Source: a virus. From it: a DNA stretch of 37,152 nt. The notes under the pieces were generated by a model that had not been told where the DNA came from, made no database searches, and saw only the letters and a program-made list of their open reading frames with translations. The position numbers and the translations under genes were made by a program. Each line of letters begins with the position of its first letter. Position 1 is the stretch's first letter. Below are positions 8,659 through 28,260 of the stretch, one piece after another. Location: IMG/VR virus record IMGVR_UViG_3300043788_000063; one strand, written 5' to 3'.

Positions 8659-8846
8659 TGGAAACCTATTACACGCACATGCGGGGGTTTCAGTTCTTCT
8701 TGGAAGTCACTGGTATGGCGTTCAACGGCACGTACGTTCTCAAGATCAGCGGCGTCGGCGAGCAGGCGATAAAGAGTTTGGCTGCGGGCAGTGAAAGCTG
8801 GGTTTGGGATAAACCGAGAGAAATCCCAAAGAATAGGATCAACTAA
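8658..8846 (+). CDS. Hypothetical small protein (62 aa)
   Basis: The ATG overlaps the upstream TGA (TGATG). Confidence 0.35.
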   Translation: METYYTHMRGFQFFLEVTGMAFNGTYVLKISGVGEQAIKSLAAGSESWVWDKPREIPKNRIN

Positions 8847-10054
8847 TGTCACATTTTTCAGTTCTAGTAATTGGCGGCAACGTGGAGGAACAGCTTCAAC
8901 CCTACCACGAATTTGAATGCACTGGCACTGACGACCAGTACGTCCAAGAGATTGATCAAACCGAGGAAGCACGCAAGACGTGGGAGGAAGACACGACCAC
9001 CTGCGTTCGCAACCCAAACGGCGAACTTGAGGATAGGTGGACGAAGGACGGCGATTGCCGACCCGAGTTCTACCGTGAACCTACCCCGGAAGAGGAAGCC
9101 AAGCACGGCAAGATGTGGGGCAGTGGGGGCGGGAACGGCATAAGCTGGACCTCCAAGGACTGGAACGACGGTCGCGGCTACCGCGCCAAGATTTACGAAC
9201 TTCCCGAGGGTTGGACTGAGGTGGAAGTTCCCACAAGCACCCGCCAGACCTTCGCCGAGTTCTGTGAAGACTACTACGGGCACACAATCGTGCCGTTCGG
9301 CGAACAGCCGAACTTCGTCAAGGGGGACGAGTCCTCCAACCACAAGTACGGATACACCATCGTTGACGAGCAGGGCAACGTCGTCAAGACCATTGACCGC
9401 ACCAACCCGAATGCAAAGTGGGACTGGTACTCGGTCGGCGGGCGCTGGAACGGGCACTTCAAGCTCAAGCCCCTCGGCGTGGGCGTGGTCGGCGAACCCG
9501 GTCTCCAGAGTATGAACGAAGACTACGAGCATCCAGGCGAAGACCGTGCCGACATCCTCATGAAGGGTGACATTGACGTTGAGGGCATGCGCAACGAGGC
9601 GGGCGAGAAGGCTGCCGACCGCTGGGACAGGTTCCATGCCATCATCGCCGGGCTGCCGGAGCCTATCACGTGGGAACAGATGCAAGAAAAGCACCAGACG
9701 GGCGAGACTGACGAGCACGGCAAGCCGAAGACTGACTGGGAAGCCGCCCGCACGGAGTTCCACGCTCAGCCCGCCGTTCAAGCGCTGCGCAACAGCAAAG
9801 ACCGGGACGCAATCTGGTGGGAAGTGGACGACTACATGGTGCCCCGTGAACAGTTCGTCAAAGAGGCACGTGACTACGCCATCGGCACTTTCGCCGTGGT
9901 CAAGGACGGTGTGTGGTACGAGCGTGGTAAGATGGGCTGGTGGGCGGCGGTGTCCAACGAGAAGGATAAGGATGAATGGACTCGCCAGTTCACGGAACTT
10001 TTTGACAGCCTGCCGGACAACACCCTATTGACTGTGGTAGACTGCCACATCTGA
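8846..10054 (+). CDS. Hypothetical protein (402 aa) with a WDWYSVGGRW motif
   Basis: Long ORF with overlapping start (TAATG). No family assigned with confidence. Confidence 0.6.
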   Translation: MSHFSVLVIGGNVEEQLQPYHEFECTGTDDQYVQEIDQTEEARKTWEEDTTTCVRNPNGELEDRWTKDGDCRPEFYREPTPEEEAKHGKMWGSGGGNGISWTSKDWNDGRGYRAKIYELPEGWTEVEVPTSTRQTFAEFCEDYYGHTIVPFGEQPNFVKGDESSNHKYGYTIVDEQGNVVKTIDRTNPNAKWDWYSVGGRWNGHFKLKPLGVGVVGEPGLQSMNEDYEHPGEDRADILMKGDIDVEGMRNEAGEKAADRWDRFHAIIAGLPEPITWEQMQEKHQTGETDEHGKPKTDWEAARTEFHAQPAVQALRNSKDRDAIWWEVDDYMVPREQFVKEARDYAIGTFAVVKDGVWYERGKMGWWAAVSNEKDKDEWTRQFTELFDSLPDNTLLTVVDCHI

Positions 10055-11158: not shown

Positions 11159-11326
11159 ATGTCAGTTCAGGAGGAGAAAGAAGCGCTGCGCAAGAAGGTT
11201 CGCAACGAGACCATTGACGAGCTTTGCACTTGGCTCTCTTCCTGCATTGAAGCGGTGGATCATAACACCGAGACCTACAAAGCATGCACCGCAATGGTCA
11301 ACGCGATGAAGGGCAAAAAGATATGA
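11159..11326 (+). CDS. Small protein (55 aa, not in the ORF track because it is <60 aa)
   Basis: ATG with GAGGAA upstream. The stop overlaps the next ATG (ATATGA). Confidence 0.3.
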   Translation: MSVQEEKEALRKKVRNETIDELCTWLSSCIEAVDHNTETYKACTAMVNAMKGKKI

Positions 11327-11499
11327 GGCTTGAAAAACAACTGCACGATGACCTTGAACAGGTCGCTGCTGAAGTGGCAAGCTGGCCCGAATGGAAGCGC
11401 AGCTTGCAGCCGTGCTCCTGTCTCCGCGAGGGAATCCTTGACGACGGCAAGCACCCGCAGAGGGATTGCCCTAAGTGCGACGGCACTGGACTATGCTAA
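11323..11499 (+). CDS. Small Cys-rich protein (58 aa; CSC...CPKCDGTGLC)
   Basis: ATG 11323 within ORF track 11284..11499. Confidence 0.4.
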   Translation: MRLEKQLHDDLEQVAAEVASWPEWKRSLQPCSCLREGILDDGKHPQRDCPKCDGTGLC

Positions 11500-11702
11500 G
11501 AAAATTTCTGTGTTTCATCGGGCTGCACAACCCTGAGATTACCCGCAAGGTTTTCTGGGGGAACGTACACCACGCCGAATTGAAGTGCGTCTGCGGCAAG
11601 AGGTACGAGGCATTTGTGGCGGGAACCGTTGGGCGGTTATACCCAGCCAAGACGCCGTCAGATTTCTGGGTCGCATGGGACGCCTTCCGCCCCGAAAATT
11701 AG
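11493..11702 (+). CDS. Small protein (69 aa; CVCGK motif)
   Basis: The ATG overlaps the upstream stop (ATGCTAA). Confidence 0.4.
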   Translation: MLRKFLCFIGLHNPEITRKVFWGNVHHAELKCVCGKRYEAFVAGTVGRLYPAKTPSDFWVAWDAFRPEN

Positions 11703-11705
11703 CTA

Positions 11706-11734
11706 TTGACAGAAATCCGAATTCGCAGTACTAT
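11706..11734 (+). promoter_or_regulatory. Sigma70-like promoter TTGACA-N17-TACTAT
   Basis: Consensus -35 hexamer and a 4/6 -10 at exact 17-nt spacing, immediately upstream of a short ORF and ~180 nt upstream of the tRNA array. Confidence 0.5.
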
Positions 11735-11749
11735 ATGAGAGTGAACAAC

Positions 11750-11851
11750 ATGACTTCAAGGAAACCCAATACGATTGCCCGCAAGGGCGCAAGCCAGTGG
11801 CGGAATCGCCATTTCGGCGTGGGTCTTTCCTTGGAAGGATGGGACGACTAA
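11750..11851 (+). CDS. Possible 33-aa basic peptide between its own promoter and a terminator
   Basis: ATG 11750 (an alternative ATG lies at 11735). No clear SD; it may instead be a non-coding leader. Confidence 0.25.
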   Translation: MTSRKPNTIARKGASQWRNRHFGVGLSLEGWDD

Positions 11852-11879
11852 GTCCTGATCCAAACCAAGTTTGAAACGA

Positions 11880-11909
11880 CCCGCTAACCGAAAGGTTCAG
11901 CGGGTTTTT
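11880..11909 (+). terminator. Rho-independent terminator
   Basis: 10-bp stem CCCGCTAACC/GGTT(C)AGCGGG with a GAAA loop, followed by TTTTT. Confidence 0.8.
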
Positions 11910-11914
11910 GCTTT

Positions 11915-11989
11915 AGGGGAGTCATTCAACGGCTAGGATGGCGGTCTCCAAAACCGCTCATGGGGGTTCGAATCCCTCCTCCCCTGCCA
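11915..11989 (+). tRNA. tRNA-Trp (anticodon CCA), CCA end encoded
   Basis: Hand-folded cloverleaf: acceptor AGGGGAG/CTCCCCT, anticodon stem GCGGT/ACCGC, loop CTCCAAA, T-arm GGGGG-TTCGAAT-CCCTC. Confidence 0.8.
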
Positions 11990-12014
11990 AATTTTGCAGT
12001 AACGAAGGGAATTT

Positions 12015-12645
12015 ATGGAACTGAAACTAGAAGCTTCTCAAGCGCGAGGGACCCGCATCCTGCGGGGACAGACGGCTGCCCGGAGACGTCTTCATCTCGT
12101 CTAACCTCGCATTGAGAGCGACGGAAGCCGGGTACGAGGAAATCGTCCTTCCGTCGCTTGAGCCAGCCGCGATCTACGCTGAGAAGGCTGGTAATGAAGT
12201 TCTGGGGCAGATGTACACGTTCCCAGACAAGAAAGGCAGGCAGCTTTGCCTGCGACCGGAAGGGACGGCGACTTGCCAGATACTCGCCGACACGGTGCTG
12301 AAGTCGGAGCGGGACGTGAAGCTCTGGTATCTGGCGACCTGCTGGCGCTACGAGCGGCCGCAGGCGGGGCGTTACCGGGAATTCTTGCAGTTCGGCGTTG
12401 AGGTCTTGAACCCACGCCAAGATATGCGGGACGAACTGGTGGAGTTGGCGACGAGCATGGTCGGGATGTTCACCGACAAGTTTGAAGTCAGCAAAGCAGT
12501 GAAGCGTGGGCTGGCGTACTACGTTGAGGACGGCTTTGAGATAAGTTGCCCGGCGTTGGGAGCACAGAAGCAAGTCTGCGGCGGCGGGTCGTACAAGCAG
12601 GGATGCGGTTTCGCATTCGGCGTAGATCGGCTGATGTTGGTTTAA
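12015..12645 (+). CDS. Minimal histidyl-tRNA synthetase-like catalytic core (~210 aa). It is interrupted by a +1 frame change near 12100-12112 and lacks the insertion and anticodon-binding domains.
   Basis: Frame 0 (ATG 12015) encodes MELKLEASQARGTRILRGQTAARRRLHLV*, which resembles the HisRS N-terminus.
Frame 1 (from 12031, TTG 12112) encodes ...AGYEEIVLP...QMYTFPDKKGRQLCLRPEGTA...LWYLATCWRYERPQAGRYREFLQFGVEVLN (class II motif 2 / HisRS motif).
This runs directly into KRGLAYYVEDGFEISCPALGAQKQVCGGGSYKQGCGFAFGVDRLML (HisRS GGGRYD plus motif 3 GFAxGxxRL). Confidence 0.7.
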
Positions 12646-12649
12646 CGAT

Positions 12650-12727
12650 GGTGGCGGTCGTCTAGAGGCTTAGGACCCCTGACTGTGACTCAGGTGATCG
12701 TGGGTTCGAATCCCATCCGCCACCCCA
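12650..12727 (+). tRNA. tRNA-His (anticodon GTG) with genomically encoded G-1 and C73
   Basis: G(-1)+GTGGCGG acceptor pairs with CCGCCAC, followed by C and CCA. Anticodon arm CCTGA-CTGTGAC-TCAGG. T-arm GTGGG-TTCGAAT-CCCAT. Starts 5 nt after the HisRS-like stop. Confidence 0.85.
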
Positions 12728-12733
12728 AATTTC

Positions 12734-12811
12734 GTCCGTGTAGCTCAGTTGGATTAGAGCGCTTCCCTCCGAAGGAAGAGGTCGTGAGTTCGAGTCTCAC
12801 CATGGACACCA
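12734..12811 (+). tRNA. tRNA-Arg (anticodon CCG)
   Basis: Acceptor GTCCGTG/CATGGAC. Anticodon stem CTTCC/GGAAG with loop CTCCGAA. CCA encoded. Confidence 0.8.
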
Positions 12812-12816
12812 GAGTT

Positions 12817-12996
12817 ATGAGAGAGACGACTGAGTATCCGCCGTTCCAGATCAGGTGCTCCAAATGCAACAAGGAGCCGGGTCAGTGCTGTGGTAGGTGG
12901 GACGGGGCACCGTATGCGTGCATGGATCGTGTGAAAGCTGCGGAAGAGATATTCGGGAAGTTCAGGTACAAGGACGGCAAGTACGTGCGTGTGTAG
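12817..12996 (+). CDS. Possible small zinc-ribbon protein (59 aa) between tRNAs
   Basis: ATG 12817; CSKCNKEPGQCCGRWDGAPYAC. The 3' end overlaps the next tRNA by ~10 nt, so the call is weak. Confidence 0.25.
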   Translation: MRETTEYPPFQIRCSKCNKEPGQCCGRWDGAPYACMDRVKAAEEIFGKFRYKDGKYVRV

Positions 12997-13063
12997 CTCA
13001 GTTGGATAGAGCGCTACTCTGCGAAGGTAGAGGTCGGCAGTTCGATTCTGCCCATGCGCACCA
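12987..13063 (+). tRNA. tRNA-Arg (anticodon GCG)
   Basis: Acceptor GCGTGTG/CATGCGC (two G-U pairs). Anticodon stem CTACT/GGTAG with loop CTGCGAA. T-arm GGCAG-TTCGATT-CTGCC. CCA encoded. Confidence 0.7.
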
Positions 13064-13073
13064 AGTTTACAGA

Positions 13074-13151
13074 GCCGGGTTAGTCATTGGACATGACAGC
13101 ACGTCTTCGAAACGTGCATATTTACGGGTTCGAATCCCGTACCCGGCTCCA
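13074..13151 (+). tRNA. tRNA-Arg (anticodon TCG)
   Basis: Acceptor GCCGGGT/ACCCGGC. Anticodon stem (G)CACGT/ACGTG(C) with loop CTTCGAA. T-arm ACGGG-TTCGAAT-CCCGT. CCA encoded. Confidence 0.7.
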
Positions 13152-13236
13152 GAGTTTGGTCTGGCGCACGCTGGTGCCAGCGAAAGTGAAGGTTGCCGTA
13201 ATCAGTCGCCCTTCAACCGAGTGGTTTTGCAAGTAC

Positions 13237-13314
13237 GCGCCCGTAGCTCAGCGGAATAAGAGCACTTCGCTACGAACGAAGGGGTCGGGAGTTCGAATCT
13301 CTCCGGGCGCACCA
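13237..13314 (+). tRNA. tRNA-Arg (anticodon ACG)
   Basis: Acceptor GCGCCCG/CGGGCGC. Anticodon stem CTTCG/CGAAG with loop CTACGAA. CCA encoded. Confidence 0.8.
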
Positions 13315-13326
13315 GTTTTGTGCTGA

Positions 13327-13402
13327 TGAGGCGTGGTCCAATCGGTAGGACGCCGCACTGTTAATGCGGATGGTGAAGGTTCGAGTCCTTCCGCCTCAGC
13401 CA
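13327..13402 (+). tRNA. tRNA-Asn (anticodon GTT), copy 1
   Basis: Acceptor TGAGGCG/CGCCTCA, G73. Anticodon stem CCGCA/TGCGG with loop CTGTTAA. CCA encoded. Confidence 0.7.
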
Positions 13403-13419
13403 ATTTTGCAGTAACATGT

Positions 13420-13494
13420 TGGGGTGTGGCTCAATGGTACAGCAGGTGACTGTTACTCACCCATTTGCAGGTTCGAGTCCTGCTGCCCCAGCCA
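13420..13494 (+). tRNA. tRNA-Asn (anticodon GTT), divergent copy 2
   Basis: Acceptor TGGGGTG/TGCCCCA (two G-U pairs), G73. Perfect anticodon stem GGTGA/TCACC with loop CTGTTAC. T-arm GCAGG-TTCGAGT-CCTGC. Confidence 0.6.
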
Positions 13495-13510
13495 AGTTTA
13501 GGAGGATGCG

Positions 13511-13774
13511 TTGCGAGTAGATGCTCCAGAGATCGTCAGGGTTGAAGATCGGGCGGTGCTTGAGCCGCTCGCCCAGCGCGGTCTGGCGGCGCATGAGCGG
13601 CTGCGGACAGCACGGGCAGCCCTAGCCGAGGCTCGGCGGATTGAGTACGCCGCAGAGATAGAACTTGCTCAGGCTGAGCGTGAGTACGCCGCCGTGAACC
13701 GGGAGATTGTCGGTGCCGGATACCACGACACAGGACACGTCGTGGGCTATTTGAAGAGTTCAGTTCCTCGGTAG
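13511..13774 (+). CDS. Small helical (Ala/Glu/Arg-rich) protein, 87 aa, between tRNAs
   Basis: GGAGG (13501-13505) is 5 nt upstream of TTG 13511. The 3' end overlaps the next tRNA by a few nt. Confidence 0.4.
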   Translation: MRVDAPEIVRVEDRAVLEPLAQRGLAAHERLRTARAALAEARRIEYAAEIELAQAEREYAAVNREIVGAGYHDTGHVVGYLKSSVPR

Positions 13775-13839
13775 CTCAATGGTGGAGCAGACGGCTGTTA
13801 ACCGTAAGGTTGTGTGTTCGACTCACACCCGAGGAGCCA
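13765..13839 (+). tRNA. tRNA-Asn (anticodon GTT), canonical copy 3
   Basis: Acceptor TCCTCGG/CCGAGGA, G73, CCA. Closely resembles E. coli tRNA-Asn. Loop CTGTTAA. Confidence 0.8.
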
Positions 13840-13924
13840 AGTTTCAGAGTTTGAGCGACCAGATCGCAGACGGCAACTTCGTTCAATGGAGGGCGATGAT
13901 CCAAAGCGGCGGACGCTCAAAGAC

Positions 13925-14003
13925 GGGTACGTAGTGTTTAACGGATTAGCACAGCAGCCTCTTAAGCTGTCGAGTGTGGGTTCAAATCCCACCGTACCCA
14001 CCA
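13925..14003 (+). tRNA. tRNA-Lys (anticodon CTT), copy 1 (long D-loop)
   Basis: Acceptor GGGTACG/CGTACCC. Anticodon stem GCAGC/GCTGT with loop CTCTTAA. T-arm GTGGG-TTCAAAT-CCCAC. CCA encoded. Confidence 0.6.
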
Positions 14004-14027
14004 AATTTGTGGTATTGTAGGGTTTTC

Positions 14028-14103
14028 GGGCTGCTAGCTCAACTGGTAGAGCATTCGACTCTTAATCGACAGGTTCCGAGTTCAAGCCTCGGGCAGCCCA
14101 CCA
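14028..14103 (+). tRNA. tRNA-Lys (anticodon CTT), copy 2
   Basis: Acceptor GGGCTGC/GCAGCCC. Anticodon loop CTCTTAA. T-arm CCGAG-TTCAAGC-CTCGG. CCA encoded. Confidence 0.75.
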
Positions 14104-14117
14104 AGTTTTTAGAGTAT

Positions 14118-14141
14118 TAGGGTTTAGCTTCCTAAGCCCTA
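14118..14141 (+). promoter_or_regulatory. 10-bp hairpin between tRNA-Lys and the HNH gene RBS
   Basis: TAGGGTTTAG-CTTC-CTAAGCCCTA (one G-U pair), directly upstream of GGAGG (14146-14150). Confidence 0.35.
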
Positions 14142-14157
14142 GATAGGAGGACAGGAC

Positions 14158-14703
14158 ATGCCTGACGTACTGGTACTGGATTCAAACTACCGTCCCATCG
14201 GCTTCAAGTCGTGGCAGGACGCTGTGAAGAATGTGTTTGAGGATCGCGCTATCGTCATCAAGGAAGACGAGAGCGGCGCGAAGCTTCACTCCCCGTCCTT
14301 TGAGATGGGCATGCCCCGTGTCATCCGTGTGCGTAACGCATGGGTGAAGCGCCGGAAGACTTCTGTCCCGTTCAGTCGCCGGAACATCTACATCCGCGAC
14401 AGCGGTGAGTGCCAGTACTGCGGCAAGCACCTCAAGACGGACGAGTACACGCTTGACCACGTGGTTCCGCGCTCGCAGGGCGGAATCTCAAGCTGGGCTA
14501 ACCTTGTCCTGTGCTGCGTGCGCTGCAACAAGCACAAGGCCGGACAGACACCGCAGCAGGCTCACATGCCGCTTCTGAGCAAGCCTGTTACACCGAAGGT
14601 TGATGATCCGAAGTACAACTTCAAACTCCACATTAGGAAGCTTCGGCCGGAGTGGAAAGAGTGGGCCGACTGGTTGTACTGGAACATTGAAATAGACGAG
14701 TAG
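14158..14703 (+). CDS. HNH endonuclease (181 aa) embedded in the tRNA array
   Basis: CQYCGKHLKTDEYTLDHVVPRSQGGISSWANLVLCCVRCNKHK is a canonical HNH motif. RBS GGAGG upstream. Confidence 0.75.
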   Translation: MPDVLVLDSNYRPIGFKSWQDAVKNVFEDRAIVIKEDESGAKLHSPSFEMGMPRVIRVRNAWVKRRKTSVPFSRRNIYIRDSGECQYCGKHLKTDEYTLDHVVPRSQGGISSWANLVLCCVRCNKHKAGQTPQQAHMPLLSKPVTPKVDDPKYNFKLHIRKLRPEWKEWADWLYWNIEIDE

Positions 14704-14711
14704 GTTAAAGA

Positions 14712-14733
14712 CCCGGAGGAGTAATCCTCCGGG
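14712..14733 (+). terminator. Terminator-like hairpin (9-bp stem, GTAA loop, weak U-tract)
   Basis: CCCGGAGGA-GTAA-TCCTCCGGG followed by CAAAATTTCT. Confidence 0.4.
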
Positions 14734-14743
14734 CAAAATTTCT

Positions 14744-14820
14744 GGCCCCGTAGTTCAGTGGAATAGAACGCAGGTTTCCTAAACCTGATGTCGCAGGTTC
14801 GAGTCCTGCCGGGGTCACCA
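14744..14820 (+). tRNA. tRNA-Arg (anticodon CCT)
   Basis: Acceptor GGCCCCG/CGGGGTC. Anticodon stem CAGGT/ACCTG with loop TTCCTAA. CCA encoded. Confidence 0.75.
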
Positions 14821-14827
14821 AGTTTGA

Positions 14828-14874
14828 GTTGCACGAAAATGTGCAACAAGCAGGAATTGCACGAAAGTGTGCAA
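14828..14874 (+). repeat. Two tandem near-identical palindromes, TTGCAC-N6-GTGCAA
   Basis: GTTGCACGAAAATGTGCAAC (14828-14847) and TTGCACGAAAGTGTGCAA (14857-14874), with centres ~30 bp apart. Confidence 0.6.
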
Positions 14875-14878
14875 CTGT

Positions 14879-14952
14879 TGGGAGATCGTCCAATGGTAGG
14901 ACACGCGCCTCTGGAGCGTGGAATCTAGGTTCGAGTCCTAGTCTCCCAGCCA
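14879..14952 (+). tRNA. tRNA-Gln (anticodon CTG)
   Basis: U1-A72 acceptor TGGGAGA/TCTCCCA, G73. Anticodon stem CGCGC/GCGTG with loop CTCTGGA. CCA encoded. Confidence 0.7.
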
Positions 14953-14957
14953 AATTT

Positions 14958-15113
14958 ATGACGATGCTTGAAGCATATTTTGATGAATTGCTCGCCCGGA
15001 TGCAGACACCAGAGTGGCGTGCGGCTGCCCAGCGGGCATTTGACGCAACGCCCGAAGAAATTGGCAAAGCGGCAGTGGAACATGCTGGACAAAACCGTGA
15101 AAGTGCGGTATAA
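14958..15113 (+). CDS. Possible small protein (51 aa)
   Basis: ATG 14958 immediately after the tRNA-Gln 3' end. Overlaps the internal promoter. Confidence 0.3.
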   Translation: MTMLEAYFDELLARMQTPEWRAAAQRAFDATPEEIGKAAVEHAGQNRESAV

Positions 15114-15114
15114 T
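15086..15114 (+). promoter_or_regulatory. Sigma70-like promoter TGGACA-N17-TATAAT inside the tRNA array
   Basis: Exact hexamers and spacing. ATG 15124 lies 10 nt downstream of the -10. Confidence 0.5.
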
Positions 15115-15123
15115 GGTCACAAG

Positions 15124-15297
15124 ATGAACTCCACGCTGAAGACGATCCTGAAGGTCACGGCGGCGGCGATTGTGCCAGGTGCGGCGATCTTTCTAGTCGG
15201 AGCATGGCTCCTGAAGGATCGTGAGAAGGAAGAATTCAGGAAGTACATTCGCAGTACCTACGGTGACGGAAGCAATTATGTGGACAATTACCGCTGA
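15124..15297 (+). CDS. Possible small membrane peptide (57 aa)
   Basis: Hydrophobic stretch KVTAAAIVPGAAIFLVGAWLL. A further overlapping 37-aa hydrophobic ORF lies at 15278..15391. Confidence 0.3.
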   Translation: MNSTLKTILKVTAAAIVPGAAIFLVGAWLLKDREKEEFRKYIRSTYGDGSNYVDNYR

Positions 15298-15405
15298 CGA
15301 TCTCATCAACTACGGCGCTCTAGCGACGATGCTGCTTGGCGTCTATGGGCTTTACCTCGCTTACACCTACCCCGCACGAAGAAAACGCTAACCACAATTT
15401 AATCT

Positions 15406-15488
15406 GGGCGTGTAATCGGGGGAGTCTTCTAAACTCTTAGCCGTAACTGGAATTGAAAATGCGAGTTCGACTCTCGCCACGCCCACCA
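15406..15488 (+). tRNA. Atypical 83-nt tRNA-like gene, possibly tRNA-Arg (anticodon TCT), with a degenerate D-arm and a 23-nt extra region
   Basis: Canonical acceptor GGGCGTG/CACGCCC, A73 and CCA. T-arm GCGAG-TTCGACT-CTCGC. The only 5-bp/7-nt stem-loop is GGAGT-CTTCTAA-ACTCT. Only 8 nt separate the acceptor from the anticodon stem. Confidence 0.35.
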
Positions 15489-15497
15489 ACCTTTTTG

Positions 15498-15573
15498 GGA
15501 GCGTAGCTCAATCCGGCAGAGCACTCGCCTTTTAAGCGAAACGTTGTGGGTTCAACTCCCACCGCTCCCACCA
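15498..15573 (+). tRNA. tRNA-Lys (anticodon TTT), copy 1
   Basis: Acceptor GGGAGCG/CGCTCCC. Anticodon loop CTTTTAA. T-arm GTGGG-TTCAACT-CCCAC. CCA encoded. Confidence 0.8.
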
Positions 15574-15578
15574 AATTT

Positions 15579-15655
15579 TGGGTCGTTACGTCAACTGGTA
15601 GACTACTCGCCTTTTAAGCGATGGAATCTCGGTTCAAATCCGAGGCGACCCACCA
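15579..15655 (+). tRNA. tRNA-Lys (anticodon TTT), copy 2
   Basis: Acceptor GGGTCGT/GCGACCC. Anticodon loop CTTTTAA. T-arm CTCGG-TTCAAAT-CCGAG. CCA encoded. Confidence 0.75.
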
Positions 15656-15664
15656 AACTCTTCC

Positions 15665-15931
15665 CTAAACCTCAATGCAGATACCCCAAATGCCGGAGTG
15701 TTCTTCAAAGCAATCCTTACAGTCACAGCACCTAAATGCCGTCATTTCGTCGGCGTTGATGTACTTGAATGGGCCTTTGCTTATGTGCCACCCACGCTTC
15801 CGCCCGCAGACCTCGCACGTGTAGAGTCCACGCTTAAGCCCCCGCCTCAGCTTCTCTTCTTGGTCAAGTTCCCTGACCTCACGGGCGATTATGCGGTTCA
15901 ACGCTTGCAGTTTTTTGGGTAGGTTTTTCAT
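15665..15931 (-). CDS. Small HNH-like zinc-finger protein (88 aa), distal gene of the minus-strand cassette
   Basis: CEVCGRKRGWHISKGPFKYINADEMTAFRCCDCKDCFEEH fits a CxxC..H..N..CxxC..H pattern. The ATGA overlap (15928-15931) couples it to the upstream gene. Confidence 0.45.
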   Translation of the reverse strand: MKNLPKKLQALNRIIAREVRELDQEEKLRRGLKRGLYTCEVCGRKRGWHISKGPFKYINADEMTAFRCCDCKDCFEEHSGIWGICIEV

Positions 15932-16203
15932 TCCAGACCTCCAATGTTCAGGTCCTTCAGGAACTTCTTATCCGCCTCAGTCACCTTCGGAGGATCATTG
16001 AACACCCAGCGGTTCGGGGACACTTCCACTTTCATGTCCGAAGTCGCGACCAGTGTTTTGTCGCAGGCTTCAATCAGAAGAAACATGGTCACGGCATCAA
16101 GCATCTTTGACAAATGCTTAGCGCTTACAGGTATGAAGGTTTCGCTATGGAGCTTGCCCTCGGTCTCATCGCCTTCTTGTGCAACTTTAATGGTGATTTT
16201 CAT
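15928..16203 (-). CDS. Hypothetical protein (91 aa), first gene of the minus-strand cassette
   Basis: GGAGG is 7 nt upstream of the ATG on the minus strand. Confidence 0.5.
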   Translation of the reverse strand: MKITIKVAQEGDETEGKLHSETFIPVSAKHLSKMLDAVTMFLLIEACDKTLVATSDMKVEVSPNRWVFNDPPKVTEADKKFLKDLNIGGLE

Positions 16204-16308
16204 TTTGTGACCTCCCAGTCACCGCATCGCCTTGGATGGCATCCACCGTGGCCTCTCGGCTCGGTTGGCGAACCCGCGCTTGGCGGATTCCTTCTTGATG
16301 CTTTGTAT

Positions 16309-16337
16309 ATGATACCGCAAAATCAGGATTTTGTCAA
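16309..16337 (-). promoter_or_regulatory. Minus-strand sigma70-like promoter TTGACA-N17-TATCAT
   Basis: The reverse complement of 16309-16337 reads TTGACAaaatcctgattttgcggTATCAT, ~105 nt upstream of the minus-strand ATG at 16203. Confidence 0.5.
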
Positions 16338-16397
16338 CCCCTAATAATCCCCTCGGCATTTCCAGCCTCTACCTGAATCCTCAGTGAGGAGACTCTT

Positions 16398-17135
16398 ATG
16401 AACCTGAGACTCGGAAAGAAAGCTGCAAAATTCAACCCCTACGCCCTCCGCATGTCGCACTACGTGGACACGGCTTACGTCCCGCCCCCGTTCTCGGACA
16501 ACACACCCCACGGCTTTGACGCTTGGGGAGTTATGATGAACGACACGCTTGGCGATTGCACTATCGCCGCCTGCGGTCATGCGCTCCAGGTCTTCACTGG
16601 CGGCAAGATTACCGAATCTGACTCGGTCATTGAGTCTTACTACTCAAAGTGGTGCGGCTACGTTCCCGGCAATCCGGCAACCGACAACGGCGGCGTTGAG
16701 CTTGATGTCCTCAACGACTGGAAGTCCCAGAGCTTTGACGGGCATGTCCTTGAGGGCTTCGTTCAGCCTCAGCCCCAGAATCTCTCGCACGTCATGCACT
16801 CCATCGCGGAGTTCGGTGGCGTGTACATCGGATTCCAAGTTCCCGTGTCCGCGATGACCCAGTTTCAGAACGGTCAGGTCTGGGACGTTGTGGCAAACGA
16901 CGGCGGAATCGCTGGCGGTCACGCAGTGTTCTGCCCGGCGTATCACACGATGGACCCGACCTACAACAAGGAAACCACGATCACCTGCATCACGTGGGGA
17001 CAGAAGCAGAAGATGACCATACCCTTCTGGGAGAAGTATTGTGACGAAAGCCACACGCTTCTCGCCGCCGCGTGGCAGCCTGCCGGGGTGAACCTCGCCA
17101 AGCTCCGTGCCGACCTCGCCTACATGGCGGGATGA
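16398..17135 (+). CDS. Hypothetical protein (245 aa), possibly a papain-fold Cys/His hydrolase
   Basis: RBS GAGGAG upstream. GDCTIAACGHAL and GGIAGGHAVFCPAY suggest Cys/His catalytic residues; this is tentative. Confidence 0.5.
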   Translation: MNLRLGKKAAKFNPYALRMSHYVDTAYVPPPFSDNTPHGFDAWGVMMNDTLGDCTIAACGHALQVFTGGKITESDSVIESYYSKWCGYVPGNPATDNGGVELDVLNDWKSQSFDGHVLEGFVQPQPQNLSHVMHSIAEFGGVYIGFQVPVSAMTQFQNGQVWDVVANDGGIAGGHAVFCPAYHTMDPTYNKETTITCITWGQKQKMTIPFWEKYCDESHTLLAAAWQPAGVNLAKLRADLAYMAG

Positions 17136-17443: not shown

Positions 17444-17474
17444 ATATCTTCCCGATGTAGTGCATACTTGGGTC

Positions 17475-18761
17475 ATGAAGAAAGAGATGACCCTCCTCGG
17501 TCTGATCGCCGCCACGTACTTCATGGTGTCGGGCGGGCCTTACGGACTTGAAGACCTCATAGCTGAAACTGGCTACGGGCTGGGCATCCTCATCCTGATC
17601 CTCGTGCCCGTTCTCTGGGCGATGCCGACAGCGCTGATGGTCGGTGAGCTTGCTTCTGCAATCCCCGACAACGGCGGTTTTTACGTCTGGGTCAAGCGTG
17701 GGCTAGGAAGGTTCTGGGGATTTCAAGAGGCTTGGCAAACGCTCGCCTCGTCCGTGTTTGACATGGGCTTGTACCCCCTCCTTTTTGTCAGCTACCTCGG
17801 CACCCTAGCCCCCAATCTAATCGCGGGATGGCACGGTCCAGCCATCGGTACCGCCCTCGTCGCAGCCTGCCTCGGATGGAATATGAGAGGCGCAAAGGCT
17901 GTGGGTGATGGTTCGGTAGGCTTCGGGGCGCTGATGGTCTCTCCGTTCGCCGTACTCGCAGCAATGGGCATCTGGCACGCCCATCGTGATGCCGTGACGA
18001 TAGCGGCACAGCATCACCCGCACCCGGCGCTGGTCGCCGGGATTTTGGTCGCCATGTGGAACTACATGGGGTGGGATAATGCCAGCACCATTGCTACCGA
18101 AGTTGAGAACCCCCGCCGCACATACCCCCTCGCCATGTTCTGGACGATGGTCGCCATCGTCGCTACCTACATCATCCCTGTCGTGGCGGCATGGCGCTTT
18201 GGCATCCCGCTGTCCGCATGGTCAACCGGAAGCTGGGCGACAATCGGTGGAGCCATCGCAGGCCCGCTGATTCGTGACGCGATCGTCGTCGGCGGCATGA
18301 TCTCGGCCGCGGGACAACTCAACTCCCTGATGATGAGCTACTCCCGCCTGCCGGGCGCACTGGCTGAGGACGGCTTCCTGCCGAAAGTTTTCACGAAGGT
18401 CAACAAGGCTGCCGTGCCGATGATCGCGCTCTTCGCCTTGAGCACCGTTTGGCTGGCTGCCATTGGGCTGAACTTTGACAGGCTAGTCATGCTGGACATC
18501 CTGCTTGCCGGGAGCAGCATCGTGTTGGAGTTCGTCGCACTGGCTGTCCTCCGCTGGAAAGAACCTGATCTTCTGCGTCCGTTTGCTGTGCCTGGTGGCA
18601 AAGTCGGGGTGATCATCTGCGGCATTCTGCCCACGGCGTTGCTGATCGGCGCTGCTATTTTCTGCGATCATGCTGGGGTTGCAATCGGCGTCGGCACGAT
18701 CCTCGCCGGGTTCGTGACTTACTGGGGCGTAAGGACATACGGCCGCATCCACTGTAAGTAG
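17475..18761 (+). CDS. APC-superfamily amino-acid/polyamine permease-like transporter (~429 aa, multi-TM)
   Basis: The N-terminus LIAATYFMVSGGPYGLEDLIAETGYG and the 12-TM hydrophobic profile are typical of APC permeases. The start could alternatively be GTG 17460. Confidence 0.6.
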   Translation: MKKEMTLLGLIAATYFMVSGGPYGLEDLIAETGYGLGILILILVPVLWAMPTALMVGELASAIPDNGGFYVWVKRGLGRFWGFQEAWQTLASSVFDMGLYPLLFVSYLGTLAPNLIAGWHGPAIGTALVAACLGWNMRGAKAVGDGSVGFGALMVSPFAVLAAMGIWHAHRDAVTIAAQHHPHPALVAGILVAMWNYMGWDNASTIATEVENPRRTYPLAMFWTMVAIVATYIIPVVAAWRFGIPLSAWSTGSWATIGGAIAGPLIRDAIVVGGMISAAGQLNSLMMSYSRLPGALAEDGFLPKVFTKVNKAAVPMIALFALSTVWLAAIGLNFDRLVMLDILLAGSSIVLEFVALAVLRWKEPDLLRPFAVPGGKVGVIICGILPTALLIGAAIFCDHAGVAIGVGTILAGFVTYWGVRTYGRIHCK

Positions 18762-27699: not shown

Positions 27700-28260
27700 A
27701 TGGACACTCATTATTACGAACTCCATGTGACCGTTCTGCCTCAGCAAATCCTAGAGTTTGCAGCCTTCTGCACAAAGCTCAACGCGAAGCCGCTGTACAT
27801 CCAGCTTGACCGGGGCATCCACAAAAACCAACCCATGCTTGCCGTCACGACCATGCTGCCGGATGACATGTCCGCCAAAGCTTGGGCGATAGATTACGGC
27901 GAACTTGTCGCAGAACATTTCCCCGTCTCGCGGGTTAAACTAGAGTCCCGGCTCATTGAGGGACCGAACGAGTACTACGAGGCGCACTGGAAGCTGAACT
28001 TCCCGCACGGCGACTCGGAGTGTCAGCTTGCTGCGTTCGTGGAAGGCAAGCCGCACATGCTGCGGAGCTACAATCTCTTTGATTCACGCATCCAATACCT
28101 TTCCCAGCGCATCTATGGATTAAGCGATCCGCTGGTTGGAAGCGACGTGTTCAACGCAAGCGGCGCTGTAATTAACCTCAGCGGCTTGCCGCTGGTGAAG
28201 ACACATTACGAACGCTGCGTTTGGGACTCAAACCCCGCCTTGGATTACGGGTGGGGATAA
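27700..28260 (+). CDS. Hypothetical protein (186 aa)
   Basis: ORF track. Confidence 0.55.
   Translation: MDTHYYELHVTVLPQQILEFAAFCTKLNAKPLYIQLDRGIHKNQPMLAVTTMLPDDMSAKAWAIDYGELVAEHFPVSRVKLESRLIEGPNEYYEAHWKLNFPHGDSECQLAAFVEGKPHMLRSYNLFDSRIQYLSQRIYGLSDPLVGSDVFNASGAVINLSGLPLVKTHYERCVWDSNPALDYGWG

Follow-up and report, generated by a model that had tools for sequence, protein, structure and literature searches.

tRNA genes at the locus

We analysed a stretch of viral DNA of 37,152 nucleotides (nt), IMG/VR virus record IMGVR_UViG_3300043788_000063 (the window), which carries a dense array of tRNA genes at positions 11915-15655. ARAGORN called 15 tRNA genes in this span, all on the + strand, and no further tRNA elsewhere in the 37,152-base window. 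Fourteen of the 15 scored 53-71 bits against RF00005 and the remaining one, tRNA-Arg (TCG), 43.5 bits, relative to a gathering score of 29. An initial annotation of this stretch had counted 16 tRNA or tRNA-like genes, for arginine, lysine, asparagine, histidine, glutamine and tryptophan. Automated calling with ARAGORN and Rfam recovered 15 of them with exactly the listed anticodons, ARAGORN moved none to another amino acid, and the 16th, a non-canonical tRNA-Arg (TCT) that we refer to as gene 16 (15406-15488, + strand), is a conserved gene.

The block runs from tRNA-Trp (CCA; 11915-11989; Rfam 54.2 bits) through a mini histidyl-tRNA-synthetase-like gene (mini-HisRS; 12015-12645, + strand) to tRNA-His (GTG; 12651-12727; 58.3 bits), four arginine tRNAs with anticodons CCG (12734-12811; 68.2 bits), GCG (12987-13063; 65.9 bits), TCG (13074-13151; 43.5 bits) and ACG (13237-13314; 63.2 bits), three copies of tRNA-Asn (GTT; 13327-13402, 71.2 bits; 13420-13494, 57.4 bits; 13765-13839, 62.5 bits) and two of tRNA-Lys (CTT; 13925-14003, 59.5 bits; 14028-14103, 64.6 bits). 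An HNH endonuclease gene lying inside the array (14158-14703, + strand; Pfam HNH_5, HNH and HNH_4) is followed by tRNA-Arg (CCT; 14744-14820; 67.8 bits), tRNA-Gln (CTG; 14879-14952; 60.2 bits), gene 16 and two copies of tRNA-Lys (TTT; 15497-15573, 67.9 bits; 15580-15655, 53.1 bits). Upstream of the array, a consensus scan placed a candidate sigma-70-like promoter, TTGACA-17-TACTAT, at 11706-11734 on the + strand (10/12 matches). At the site of the first Lys-CTT copy, one population variant (L011) has a 75-nt Lys-CTT call followed by extra sequence that is absent from the window.

The called genes look like complete tRNA genes on direct reading. All 15 encode the 3' CCA, tRNA-His encodes G-1 at 12650 opposite C73, and the three Asn genes and the Gln gene carry U1-A72 together with G73, so that the isotype identity elements of the His, Asn and Gln tRNAs agree with their anticodons. 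Anticodon loops are canonical (CU-NNN-AA), and the Gln loop has G37. The bodies of the duplicated genes are clearly different, as the initial annotation had noticed for asparagine: the Asn copies are pairwise 59-71% identical (n=3) and the Lys copies 60-71% (n=4), where the background identity between tRNAs of different amino acids is approximately 51-68% with a maximum of 72% (Asn-1/Gln and Gln/Lys-TTT-2). The Arg CCG, GCG and ACG genes are 74-81% identical to one another. Despite these different bodies, the duplicated Lys and Asn genes share the same 7-nt anticodon loops, with C38 in the second Asn copy as the sole exception. All 12 anticodons of the block connect through single-base steps. 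Most of the tRNA genes have A(A/G)TTT directly after the encoded CCA, for example CCAAATTT or CCAAGTTT, which may be a processing signal, and two tandem hairpins, TTGCACGAAA(A/G)TGTGCAA, lie at 14829-14876 between tRNA-Arg (CCT) and tRNA-Gln.

The low-scoring Arg-TCG gene folds with an odd D-arm, consisting of a 5-bp D-stem and a 5-nt loop, TGGAC, and has a variable loop of 7 nt. Between the window (GTCAT/ATGAC) and the orthologue in L001 (CCCAT/ATGGG; 11260-11337), a related contig of 463 kb with the closest mini-HisRS, the D-stem covaries and the loop TGGAC is conserved. The Arg-GCG gene lies beside Arg-ACG, with the same pairing of genes in L001 and in the related contig L235. CGU and CGC are normally read in bacteria by inosine-modified ACG, and since bacteria usually need this modified species for the two codons, an Arg-GCG tRNA would free decoding from the host deaminase TadA.

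The array is a conserved block, and relatives carry further blocks

The same module is present in at least 8 diverged relatives (carried by L001, L004, L005-L008, L234, L235, L236 and L237), in the shared order (Trp), His, Arg-CCG/(GCG)/TCG/ACG, Asn x2-3, Lys-CTT x1-2, HNH, Arg-CCT/TCT, Gln-CTG, Lys-TTT. Across these carriers tRNA orthologues are approximately 70-80% identical. The HNH gene sits at the same array position in all of them, with 59-63% protein identity in L004-L008 and another orthologue in L227/L234. Between the window and L001, the mini-HisRS (87% identical), the HNH protein (61%), a nucleotidyltransferase of the RlaP family (41%) and two small open reading frames (ORFs) are shared, and the remaining window proteins have no detectable homologue in L001.

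Several relatives carry tRNAs for other amino acids, either in separate blocks or within the module. A second block with tRNA-Ser GCT, GGA, TGA and CGA and Leu-TAA lies 12.4 kb upstream of the module in L227/L231, and a similar one with an additional Ile-TAT lies 5.3 kb upstream in L237. In L005-L008, Phe, Met (x3) and Pro (x3) genes are inserted within the module, and L003 has 33 tRNAs for 13 amino acids, amino-acid-sorted, beside its mini-HisRS. The layout is clearest in LR745206.1, a complete relative genome of 634,780 bp. Its first block (342.5-344.0 kb; His, Phe, Trp, Lys x4, Arg, Ser) lies just upstream of the mini-HisRS, and is followed by a second (364.9-369.3 kb; Met, Glu x4, Tyr x2, Ile, Gly x3, Ala), a third (387.9-390.3 kb; Asn x3, Arg x3, Leu x6, Val, Ile, Thr, Met), a fourth (406.9-408.1 kb; Pro x2, Asp x4, Gln x3) and further calls at 419.8-420.3 kb (one unassigned call and Met). 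Tract lengths without tRNA are 16-21 kb between blocks 1 to 4 and 70 kb upstream of block 1. For Phosso (PV764938.1, 469 kb), a cultured Sinorhizobium phage, the annotation lists more than 60 tRNAs, and those in the parts read serve 19 of the 20 amino acids (Tyr was not seen there).

These relatives change how the composition of the array is to be read. On a genome of this kind, 37 kb would usually take in a single block. Because relatives carry further sorted blocks, the limitation of the array to six amino acids is very likely an effect of the 37 kb window. The statement of the initial annotation that no other amino acid is decoded thus holds for the window by ARAGORN and fails for relatives with the module, which add Ser, Leu, Phe, Met and Pro; its argument that the restriction reflects tuning against nucleases depended on the window boundary and is not supported. 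The full set of isoacceptors per amino acid is a layout habit of these phages, because Ser shows it too. More generally, since these phages sort their tRNAs into blocks 5-21 kb apart, the tRNA set of a genome fragment should not be judged by what is missing from it.

Relatives also contain unusual tRNA-like genes. In L001 (12041-12110 and 12385-12452) and L235 (8531-8601), genes with normal acceptor, D and T arms have shortened or odd anticodon loops and appear in the ARAGORN output as "Cys" or "???"; in these relatives they belong to the module, and the window has none of them. Three L001 genes at 11504-11590, 11940-12027 and 15537-15624, for Asn, Gln and Arg-CCT, are 87-88 nt long and have a variable-region hairpin (e.g. 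GAGC-GAAA-GCTC). Long variable arms are normally confined to Leu, Ser and Tyr tRNAs. Suppressor-type tRNAs occur in L237 (6273-6347; TCA, called "SeC") and in Phosso (L016, 26732-26807; CTA, annotated "Pyl"), and none is present in the window.

A fragment of a huge phage, probably of Acidobacteriota

The window encodes RIIA (31336-33633) and RIIB (33646-35022), as well as an amino-acid permease, DNA methylases, Ku and a methionine aminopeptidase. It also encodes an 820-residue major-vault-protein-like protein (4019-6481) with shoulder and repeat domains, whose phage homologues are found only in uncultured phages of 462-735 kb. Relatives of the mini-HisRS lie on contigs or genomes of 353-642 kb, including that of Phosso. 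Judged by these relatives of 353-735 kb, the window is probably a fragment of a huge phage. Megablast of positions 11500-16500 gave no near match among GenBank phages, and exact matches to the HNH protein and both window-end ORFs came only from metagenome contigs of about 1-6.5 kb, with forest-soil samples such as JGI 3300050821, 3300021432 and 3300069644 among those containing identical genes. Gene content is retained in population variants at 92-97% identity, which differ by small insertions and deletions. A generic pattern of T-arm, CCA and ARTTT in IMG/VR returned mostly unrelated phages among the matches listed, and the window contig was not among these.

The permease, of the APC family (17460-18761), is 50-56% identical to proteins of Acidobacteriota (Terriglobia), and its closest relatives belong overwhelmingly to this class. 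In many Acidobacteriota genomes the orthologue adjoins tRNA-Ser (GCU). By this acquired gene, the host is probably a member of the Acidobacteriota, for which very few phages are known. We had considered the permease as a transporter of basic amino acids and dropped this assignment, as it gave generic APC-family matches only, all far under curated cut-offs.

Codon demand explains the Lys-CTT and Asn copies

Codon usage was counted over 8,786 codons in 38 ORFs of the window and compared with a crude host proxy, which comprised 121 non-membrane ORFs at Acidobacteriota permease loci. One explanation for the array is pure supplementation of codon or amino-acid demand, with tRNAs for the codons that the phage uses more than its host. 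Lysine is indeed the most enriched amino acid (1.88x), AAG reaches 2.33x (53 vs 23 per 1000 codons) and AAC 1.70x (33 vs 19 per 1000 codons), and the presence of two Lys-CTT and three Asn-GTT genes is explained because AAG and AAC are over-used. The remaining genes fit poorly. The phage makes less use of Arg (0.73x), His (0.80x) and Gln-CAG (0.72x) than the host proxy does, yet the block has six Arg genes; AAA is level with the host proxy (1.02x), yet there are two Lys-TTT genes; CAA is enriched 1.58x with no Gln-TTG gene in the window; and TGC, TAC and GAA are enriched with no tRNA for them there. For each amino acid the set covers common as well as rare codons, which fits an own decoding capacity better than a supplement for rare codons. 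Codon demand accounts for the Lys-CTT and Asn duplicates and not for the Arg, His and Gln genes, and as an explanation of the whole array we consider it unlikely. The earlier view that the array is not a codon-usage supplement stands for Arg, His and Gln and fails for the extra Lys-CTT and Asn copies.

We favour a different reading, to which we assign a probability of roughly 0.7: the array is one conserved, amino-acid-sorted block of a larger, multi-block tRNA complement in a huge phage (probably >350 kb), most likely of soil Acidobacteriota. The block appears to have grown by local duplication and single-base anticodon changes, and would be transcribed from phage promoters and processed into CCA-ended tRNAs. 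All blocks together would form the phage's own decoding capacity, which would keep phage translation going where the host's tRNAs have been degraded or depleted or do not match demand, with the extra Lys-CTT and Asn copies serving heavy AAG and AAC use. Further blocks in the window's own genome are predicted from its relatives, and the tRNAs of the block are presumed to be expressed, charged and used during infection.

Several observations weigh against this reading. The window has 11.9 kb upstream and 21.5 kb downstream of the array without any ARAGORN call, and L001 has no other tRNA for 19 kb upstream or 13.5 kb downstream of its block. We kept the probability at about this level because the L001 flanks show no second block and the phage itself is covered by 37 kb. 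The host assignment draws on a single acquired permease gene, and the host codon table is correspondingly rough. Finally, the six amino acids of the block are exactly those with nitrogen in the side chain; because all 12 anticodons are linked by single-base steps, this coincidence is probably a by-product of codon-table neighbourhood. If the block reading is confirmed, a clade of soil megaphages, with Acidobacteriota as their probable hosts, shares a tRNA module of conserved order.

Neighbouring genes and a possible conflict over tRNAs

The initial annotation had proposed that the array is a set of replacement or decoy tRNAs for families attacked by anticodon nucleases, with the divergent duplicates as resistant variants. 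That phage tRNAs can replace host tRNAs destroyed by nucleases and so rescue translation, as it had stated, is already published (PMC10264068, PMC11464382, PMC12409363). In phage T5, tRNA-Lys, tRNA-Thr and tRNA-Asn counter the PARIS nuclease AriB (PMC12409363, PMC11464382), which targets Lys, Asn and also Thr tRNAs (PMC12409363); tRNA-Tyr acts against retron and Septu systems (PMC11555353, PMC13096335), with SegB-driven amplification of tRNA-Tyr (PMC13096335). Anticodon-loop changes in phage tRNAs have been documented and form the basis of a mutation hypothesis (PMC10264068).

Genes around the array are consistent with a conflict over tRNAs. An RlaP-family nucleotidyltransferase (6737-7558, + strand; Pfam PF10127, E 3.5e-20; phrog_388) lies 4.4 kb upstream of the array. 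In both relatives with a comparable flank on that side (L001 and L005/L006), a homologue likewise precedes the array. RlaP adds nucleotides to damaged RNA 3' ends and thereby restores tRNA function (PMC12776372), and in jumbo phages it is accompanied by RNA ligases (PMC7824862). In the window we found no RNA ligase; the ORF at 8846-10054 (phrog_10079), considered as the ligase partner of RlaP, was dropped, as it had no Pfam, NCBIfam or PADLOC match and no ligase motif on reading. The gene adjoining RlaP (7558-8193, + strand) encodes a protein with a putative C-terminal domain of the GatB/YqeY-like, tRNA-binding type, where the match of the YqeY-like tail is weak (PF02637, E 0.0035, under the curated cut-off). 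An AbiEi-like antitoxin (27700-28260; PADLOC E 6.5e-21) has no recognisable AbiEii toxin beside it, and this orphan may serve in counter-defence. Together with the HNH gene and the odd Arg tRNAs, the RlaP gene and the orphan antitoxin make up a neighbourhood that fits such a conflict.

As an explanation of what the block contains, protection from nucleases seems to us distinctly unlikely, in spite of the T5 precedent and these neighbours. In its favour, Arg, His and Gln tRNAs are present despite their under-used codons, two Arg tRNAs have unusual cores, and position 39 of the Lys-TTT genes is G, in contrast to U39 in the sequence that AriB recognises (U36-A-A-U39). On the other hand, related genomes are not restricted to the six amino acids, and Ser, too, has a full isoacceptor set. 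The claim that known toxins hit exactly the families in the array turned out to be a loose match. Colicin E5 cuts Tyr and Asp tRNAs along with His and Asn. The block has no tRNA for the nuclease co-targets Tyr, Asp, Thr or Glu, its composition matches no single nuclease's target set, and since known tRNases together hit most families, almost any subset would fit after the fact. The divergent duplicates differ in their bodies and not at the classical cleavage sites, their anticodon loops being the same apart from C38 in Asn-2. In the one host-proxy tRNA-Lys (UUU) obtained (L173, n=1), the loop, CUUUUAA, is the same as in the phage copies, and the stems differ. Within the block reading preferred here, an anti-tRNase benefit is plausible, because the RlaP repair enzyme lies upstream, as part of the selective advantage and not as what sets the composition of the block.

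Downstream of the array, on the - strand, a candidate SAM-I/IV (S-adenosylmethionine) riboswitch aptamer at 16306-16191 scored 43.4 bits (gathering score 41.1) and may be a phage-encoded SAM riboswitch. A candidate sigma-70-like promoter, TTGACA-17-TATCAT (16337-16309), lies just upstream of it, and the ATG of a 91-residue ORF (16203-15928) comes directly after its last hairpin. Neither this ORF nor the next one, of 88 residues, had a family match.

A family of arginine tRNAs with a rewired D-arm

Gene 16 received no ARAGORN call and no RF00005 match even in E-value mode; its only Rfam matches, to a partial transfer-messenger RNA (22.8 bits) and to YrlA (26.6 bits), were below the gathering score. 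Single-sequence folding gave no cloverleaf and no D-arm at the canonical position. Its 5' half has a 7-bp acceptor stem, U8, a strand of helix H2 at positions 9-11, helix H1 and an anticodon hairpin with the loop CTTCTAA, and its 3' half the bulge TAACTGGA, a linker GAAAAT, a normal T-arm and CCA. In H2, positions 9-11 pair with the three bases after TGGA.

The homologues of gene 16 in L001 and L234 carry compensatory changes, and a metagenome pattern search found many more, with 102 loci that correspond to 80 distinct trimmed sequences (86 before trimming). A pattern that left the anticodon free matched 49 viral contigs in IMG/VR, and 49/49 had an Arg anticodon (TCT, ACG, TCG or CCT). Members share a layout of a 7-bp acceptor stem, U8, an A-R-Y strand, a 3-nt H1 strand, one nucleotide, a 5-bp anticodon stem with a C-U-NNN-A-A loop, U-A-N, the H1 partner strand, a near-invariant bulge UAAYUGGA, R-Y-U, the linker GAAAAU and a normal T-arm; R-Y-U pairs back to A-R-Y to form H2. 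In an alignment of 67 distinct sequences (A1), 95.2% of cells were paired relative to 37-47% in slid controls, with a covariation score of 0.79 vs 0.10-0.15. H1 was paired in 89% and H2 in 84.5%, with swaps among GC, AU and CG in both. Independently, RNAalifold predicted the acceptor, H1, anticodon and T helices; it did not predict H2, for which the evidence is the covariation. The possibility that gene 16 is a pseudogene or a chance hairpin is ruled out by covariation across the 67 distinct sequences: it is a real, conserved gene, and the strong covariation indicates that the family probably consists of arginine tRNAs with a rewired D-arm.

A covariance model of the family (R1) assigned 55-96 bits to clear members and about 24-35 bits to called canonical tRNAs and so told the two apart, with a few rewired-like candidates at intermediate scores of 36-48 bits. 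Gene 16 was the top match at 95.6 bits, a score that is partly circular as gene 16 is an R1 training sequence. R1 located members in nearly all relatives, namely in L001, L002, L004, L234, L235, L237 and LR745206 (two), and a 47.9-bit match in Phosso is possibly another. ARAGORN miscalled the L002 copy as "Asp-ATC" and an LR745206 copy as a 90-nt Arg. Among cultured phages, members lie in Pseudomonas phage PA11 (NC_007808, 47.67-47.76 kb) and its relatives, in the intergenic gap after an HNH gene, and in T5-like Vibrio phages, within their tRNA arrays. Two of these cultured copies were inspected, that of PA11 and that of a T5-like Vibrio phage, and the matched positions carry no annotated feature. 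When rewired tRNAs were compared with GenBank phages by blastn, one query gave no match and a second one gave matches. Rewired-type tRNA-like genes with Ile anticodons (GAT, TAT) occur in two megaphages (L002 6688-6850 and L223 17077-17155), with 37-43 bits under this Arg-trained model, and the rewired architecture may not be limited to arginine.

The layout suggests how such an RNA could work. H2, H1 and the anticodon stem would stack into an arm of about the length of a canonical D-stem plus anticodon stem, and the bulge would give the equivalent of G18-G19-A20, providing the elbow contact and the identity base for arginyl-tRNA synthetase (ArgRS). The product of gene 16 would then be an L-shaped, chargeable tRNA-Arg with altered strand connectivity. 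We found no description of this class in the literature searched on rewired or non-canonical tRNAs and tRNA-like decoys, the coverage of which was incomplete. If confirmed, this would be a large family of structurally rewired arginine tRNAs and a natural experiment on what ArgRS, EF-Tu, the ribosome and tRNA-targeting defence nucleases need of a tRNA core. Because ARAGORN and Rfam miss the copy in the window and the inspected cultured copies are unannotated, phage tRNA counts may be too low.

A mini-HisRS with a candidate +1 frameshift site

The mini-HisRS gene matches Pfam tRNA-synt_His (E 3.5e-20) and NCBIfam hisS (E 3.6e-42) and is split over two frames. An N-terminal part of 29 codons (12015-12101) in frame 0 ends at TAA (12102-12104), and the catalytic body, with HisRS catalytic motifs, lies in the +1 frame (ORF 12112-12645). 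Alignment to structures in the Protein Data Bank (PDB) covers HisRS residues 43-157 and 259-299 only, and by Pfam, NCBIfam and this alignment the protein has neither the insertion domain nor the anticodon-binding domain. The junction (12087-12104) contains CTT CAT (Leu-His; 12090-12095).

The same split, with the first 25-30 codons in one frame and the body in the +1 frame, is found in the window, L001, Phosso and L003. All four of these lineages have CTT CAT at the junction, with a stop within 0-3 codons (TAA, TAG, TGA and TGA), and the +1 frame there reads TTC AT(C/T). A Shine-Dalgarno-like (SD-like) GGAG, GGAGG or GAGG lies 3-4 nt upstream of CTT in three of the four. In the protein alignment CTT CAT is placed variably, which indicates that it tracks the junction and not the protein. 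A sequencing error is rejected as the source of the break, since four independent genomes share the break at this CTT CAT while their stop codons differ. L002 and LR745206 encode the whole mini-HisRS in a single frame (start MEL/IKI..KGTRI..), and in the Phosso annotation the coding sequence starts from an internal Met, ignoring the N-terminal part. The junction looks like a candidate programmed +1 frameshift of the prfB type with a His codon in the A site. When His-tRNA-His is scarce, a +1 shift from CUU to UUC would yield full-length mini-HisRS. If confirmed, this is possibly the first aminoacyl-tRNA-synthetase-like gene under a +1 frameshift at its own cognate codon.

Gene 16 and the mini-HisRS can be drawn into one tentative picture, in which, taken as a whole, we place less than even confidence. 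Gene 16 would be a working tRNA-Arg of a class for which we found no description, its anticodon hairpin nested in the D-stem and its D-loop kept as a bulge. This class would be widespread in phages, with genomes ranging from the 50 kb of Pseudomonas podophages to the 600 kb of megaphages, and missed by standard annotation; the rewired tRNA-Arg may have evolved to escape host enzymes that recognise the core while keeping its function with ArgRS and the ribosome; and a +1 frameshift that responds to scarce His-tRNA would turn on the adjacent mini-HisRS.

The mini-HisRS also bears on a further explanation of the array, namely that the block serves Arg, His, Lys, Asn, Gln and Trp as a nitrogen-side-chain unit, co-transcribed and co-regulated, for instance with the nitrogen or amino-acid state of the host, with the His-sensing mini-HisRS and the nearby permease as parts. 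The set is exact and complete (for a pre-specified set of 6 of 20 amino acids the chance is 1 in 38,760), its core composition is conserved in at least 8 lineages, the mini-HisRS with its His-codon candidate frameshift site lies inside the block, and the permease gene lies 1.8 kb downstream. Nevertheless, we regard this explanation as very improbable: the pattern was spotted post hoc, Phe, Met and Pro are interleaved in relatives, adjacency in the codon table with duplication and single-base change gives the same set, a shortage of amino acids is not relieved by extra tRNA genes, and the permease has no assignable substrate.

Comparison with known systems

The tRNA complements of huge phages (PMC7162821) and of Phosso resemble the window in that tRNA arrays lie amid small ORFs, homing-type endonucleases and tRNA-synthetase-like genes. 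Huge-phage complements comprise dozens of tRNA genes in arrays, and Phosso, too, has its mini-HisRS within the tRNA region. The order of tRNAs in Phosso is mixed, whereas the window and its closer soil relatives are amino-acid-sorted with a conserved order.

The tRNA clusters of T5 and T4 share with the window phage-borne Lys and Asn tRNAs and a repair enzyme nearby, and SegB of T4/T6 is, like the HNH gene here, an endonuclease gene embedded in a tRNA cluster. In contrast to counter-defence in T5 and T4, the anticodon loops in the window are canonical and its composition fits no single nuclease.

The mini-HisRS resembles prfB in that a stop follows soon after CUU, a shift from CUU to UUC restores the full-length protein and an SD-like motif lies upstream in three of the four split lineages. 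It differs in having the His codon CAU after CUU instead of a stop, and, as read from the sequence, the signal sensed would be His-tRNA-His and not a release factor.

Gene 16 is most readily compared with mitochondrial tRNAs that lack a D-arm. Nematode mitochondrial tRNA-Ser (UCU) likewise has no D-arm at the canonical position, an extended anticodon hairpin and a UCU anticodon (PMC7609411; this 2020 review of non-canonical tRNAs does not mention phages). In contrast to the D-arm-lacking mitochondrial tRNAs, the acceptor stem of gene 16 is complete at 7 bp, its T-arm (GTTCGA) is canonical, a D-loop-like element TAAYTGGA with GG is kept, and a 3-bp D-stem-like helix encloses its anticodon hairpin. 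Gene 16 is, moreover, encoded by a phage, and the core of its family has only Arg anticodons (TCT, ACG, TCG and CCT).

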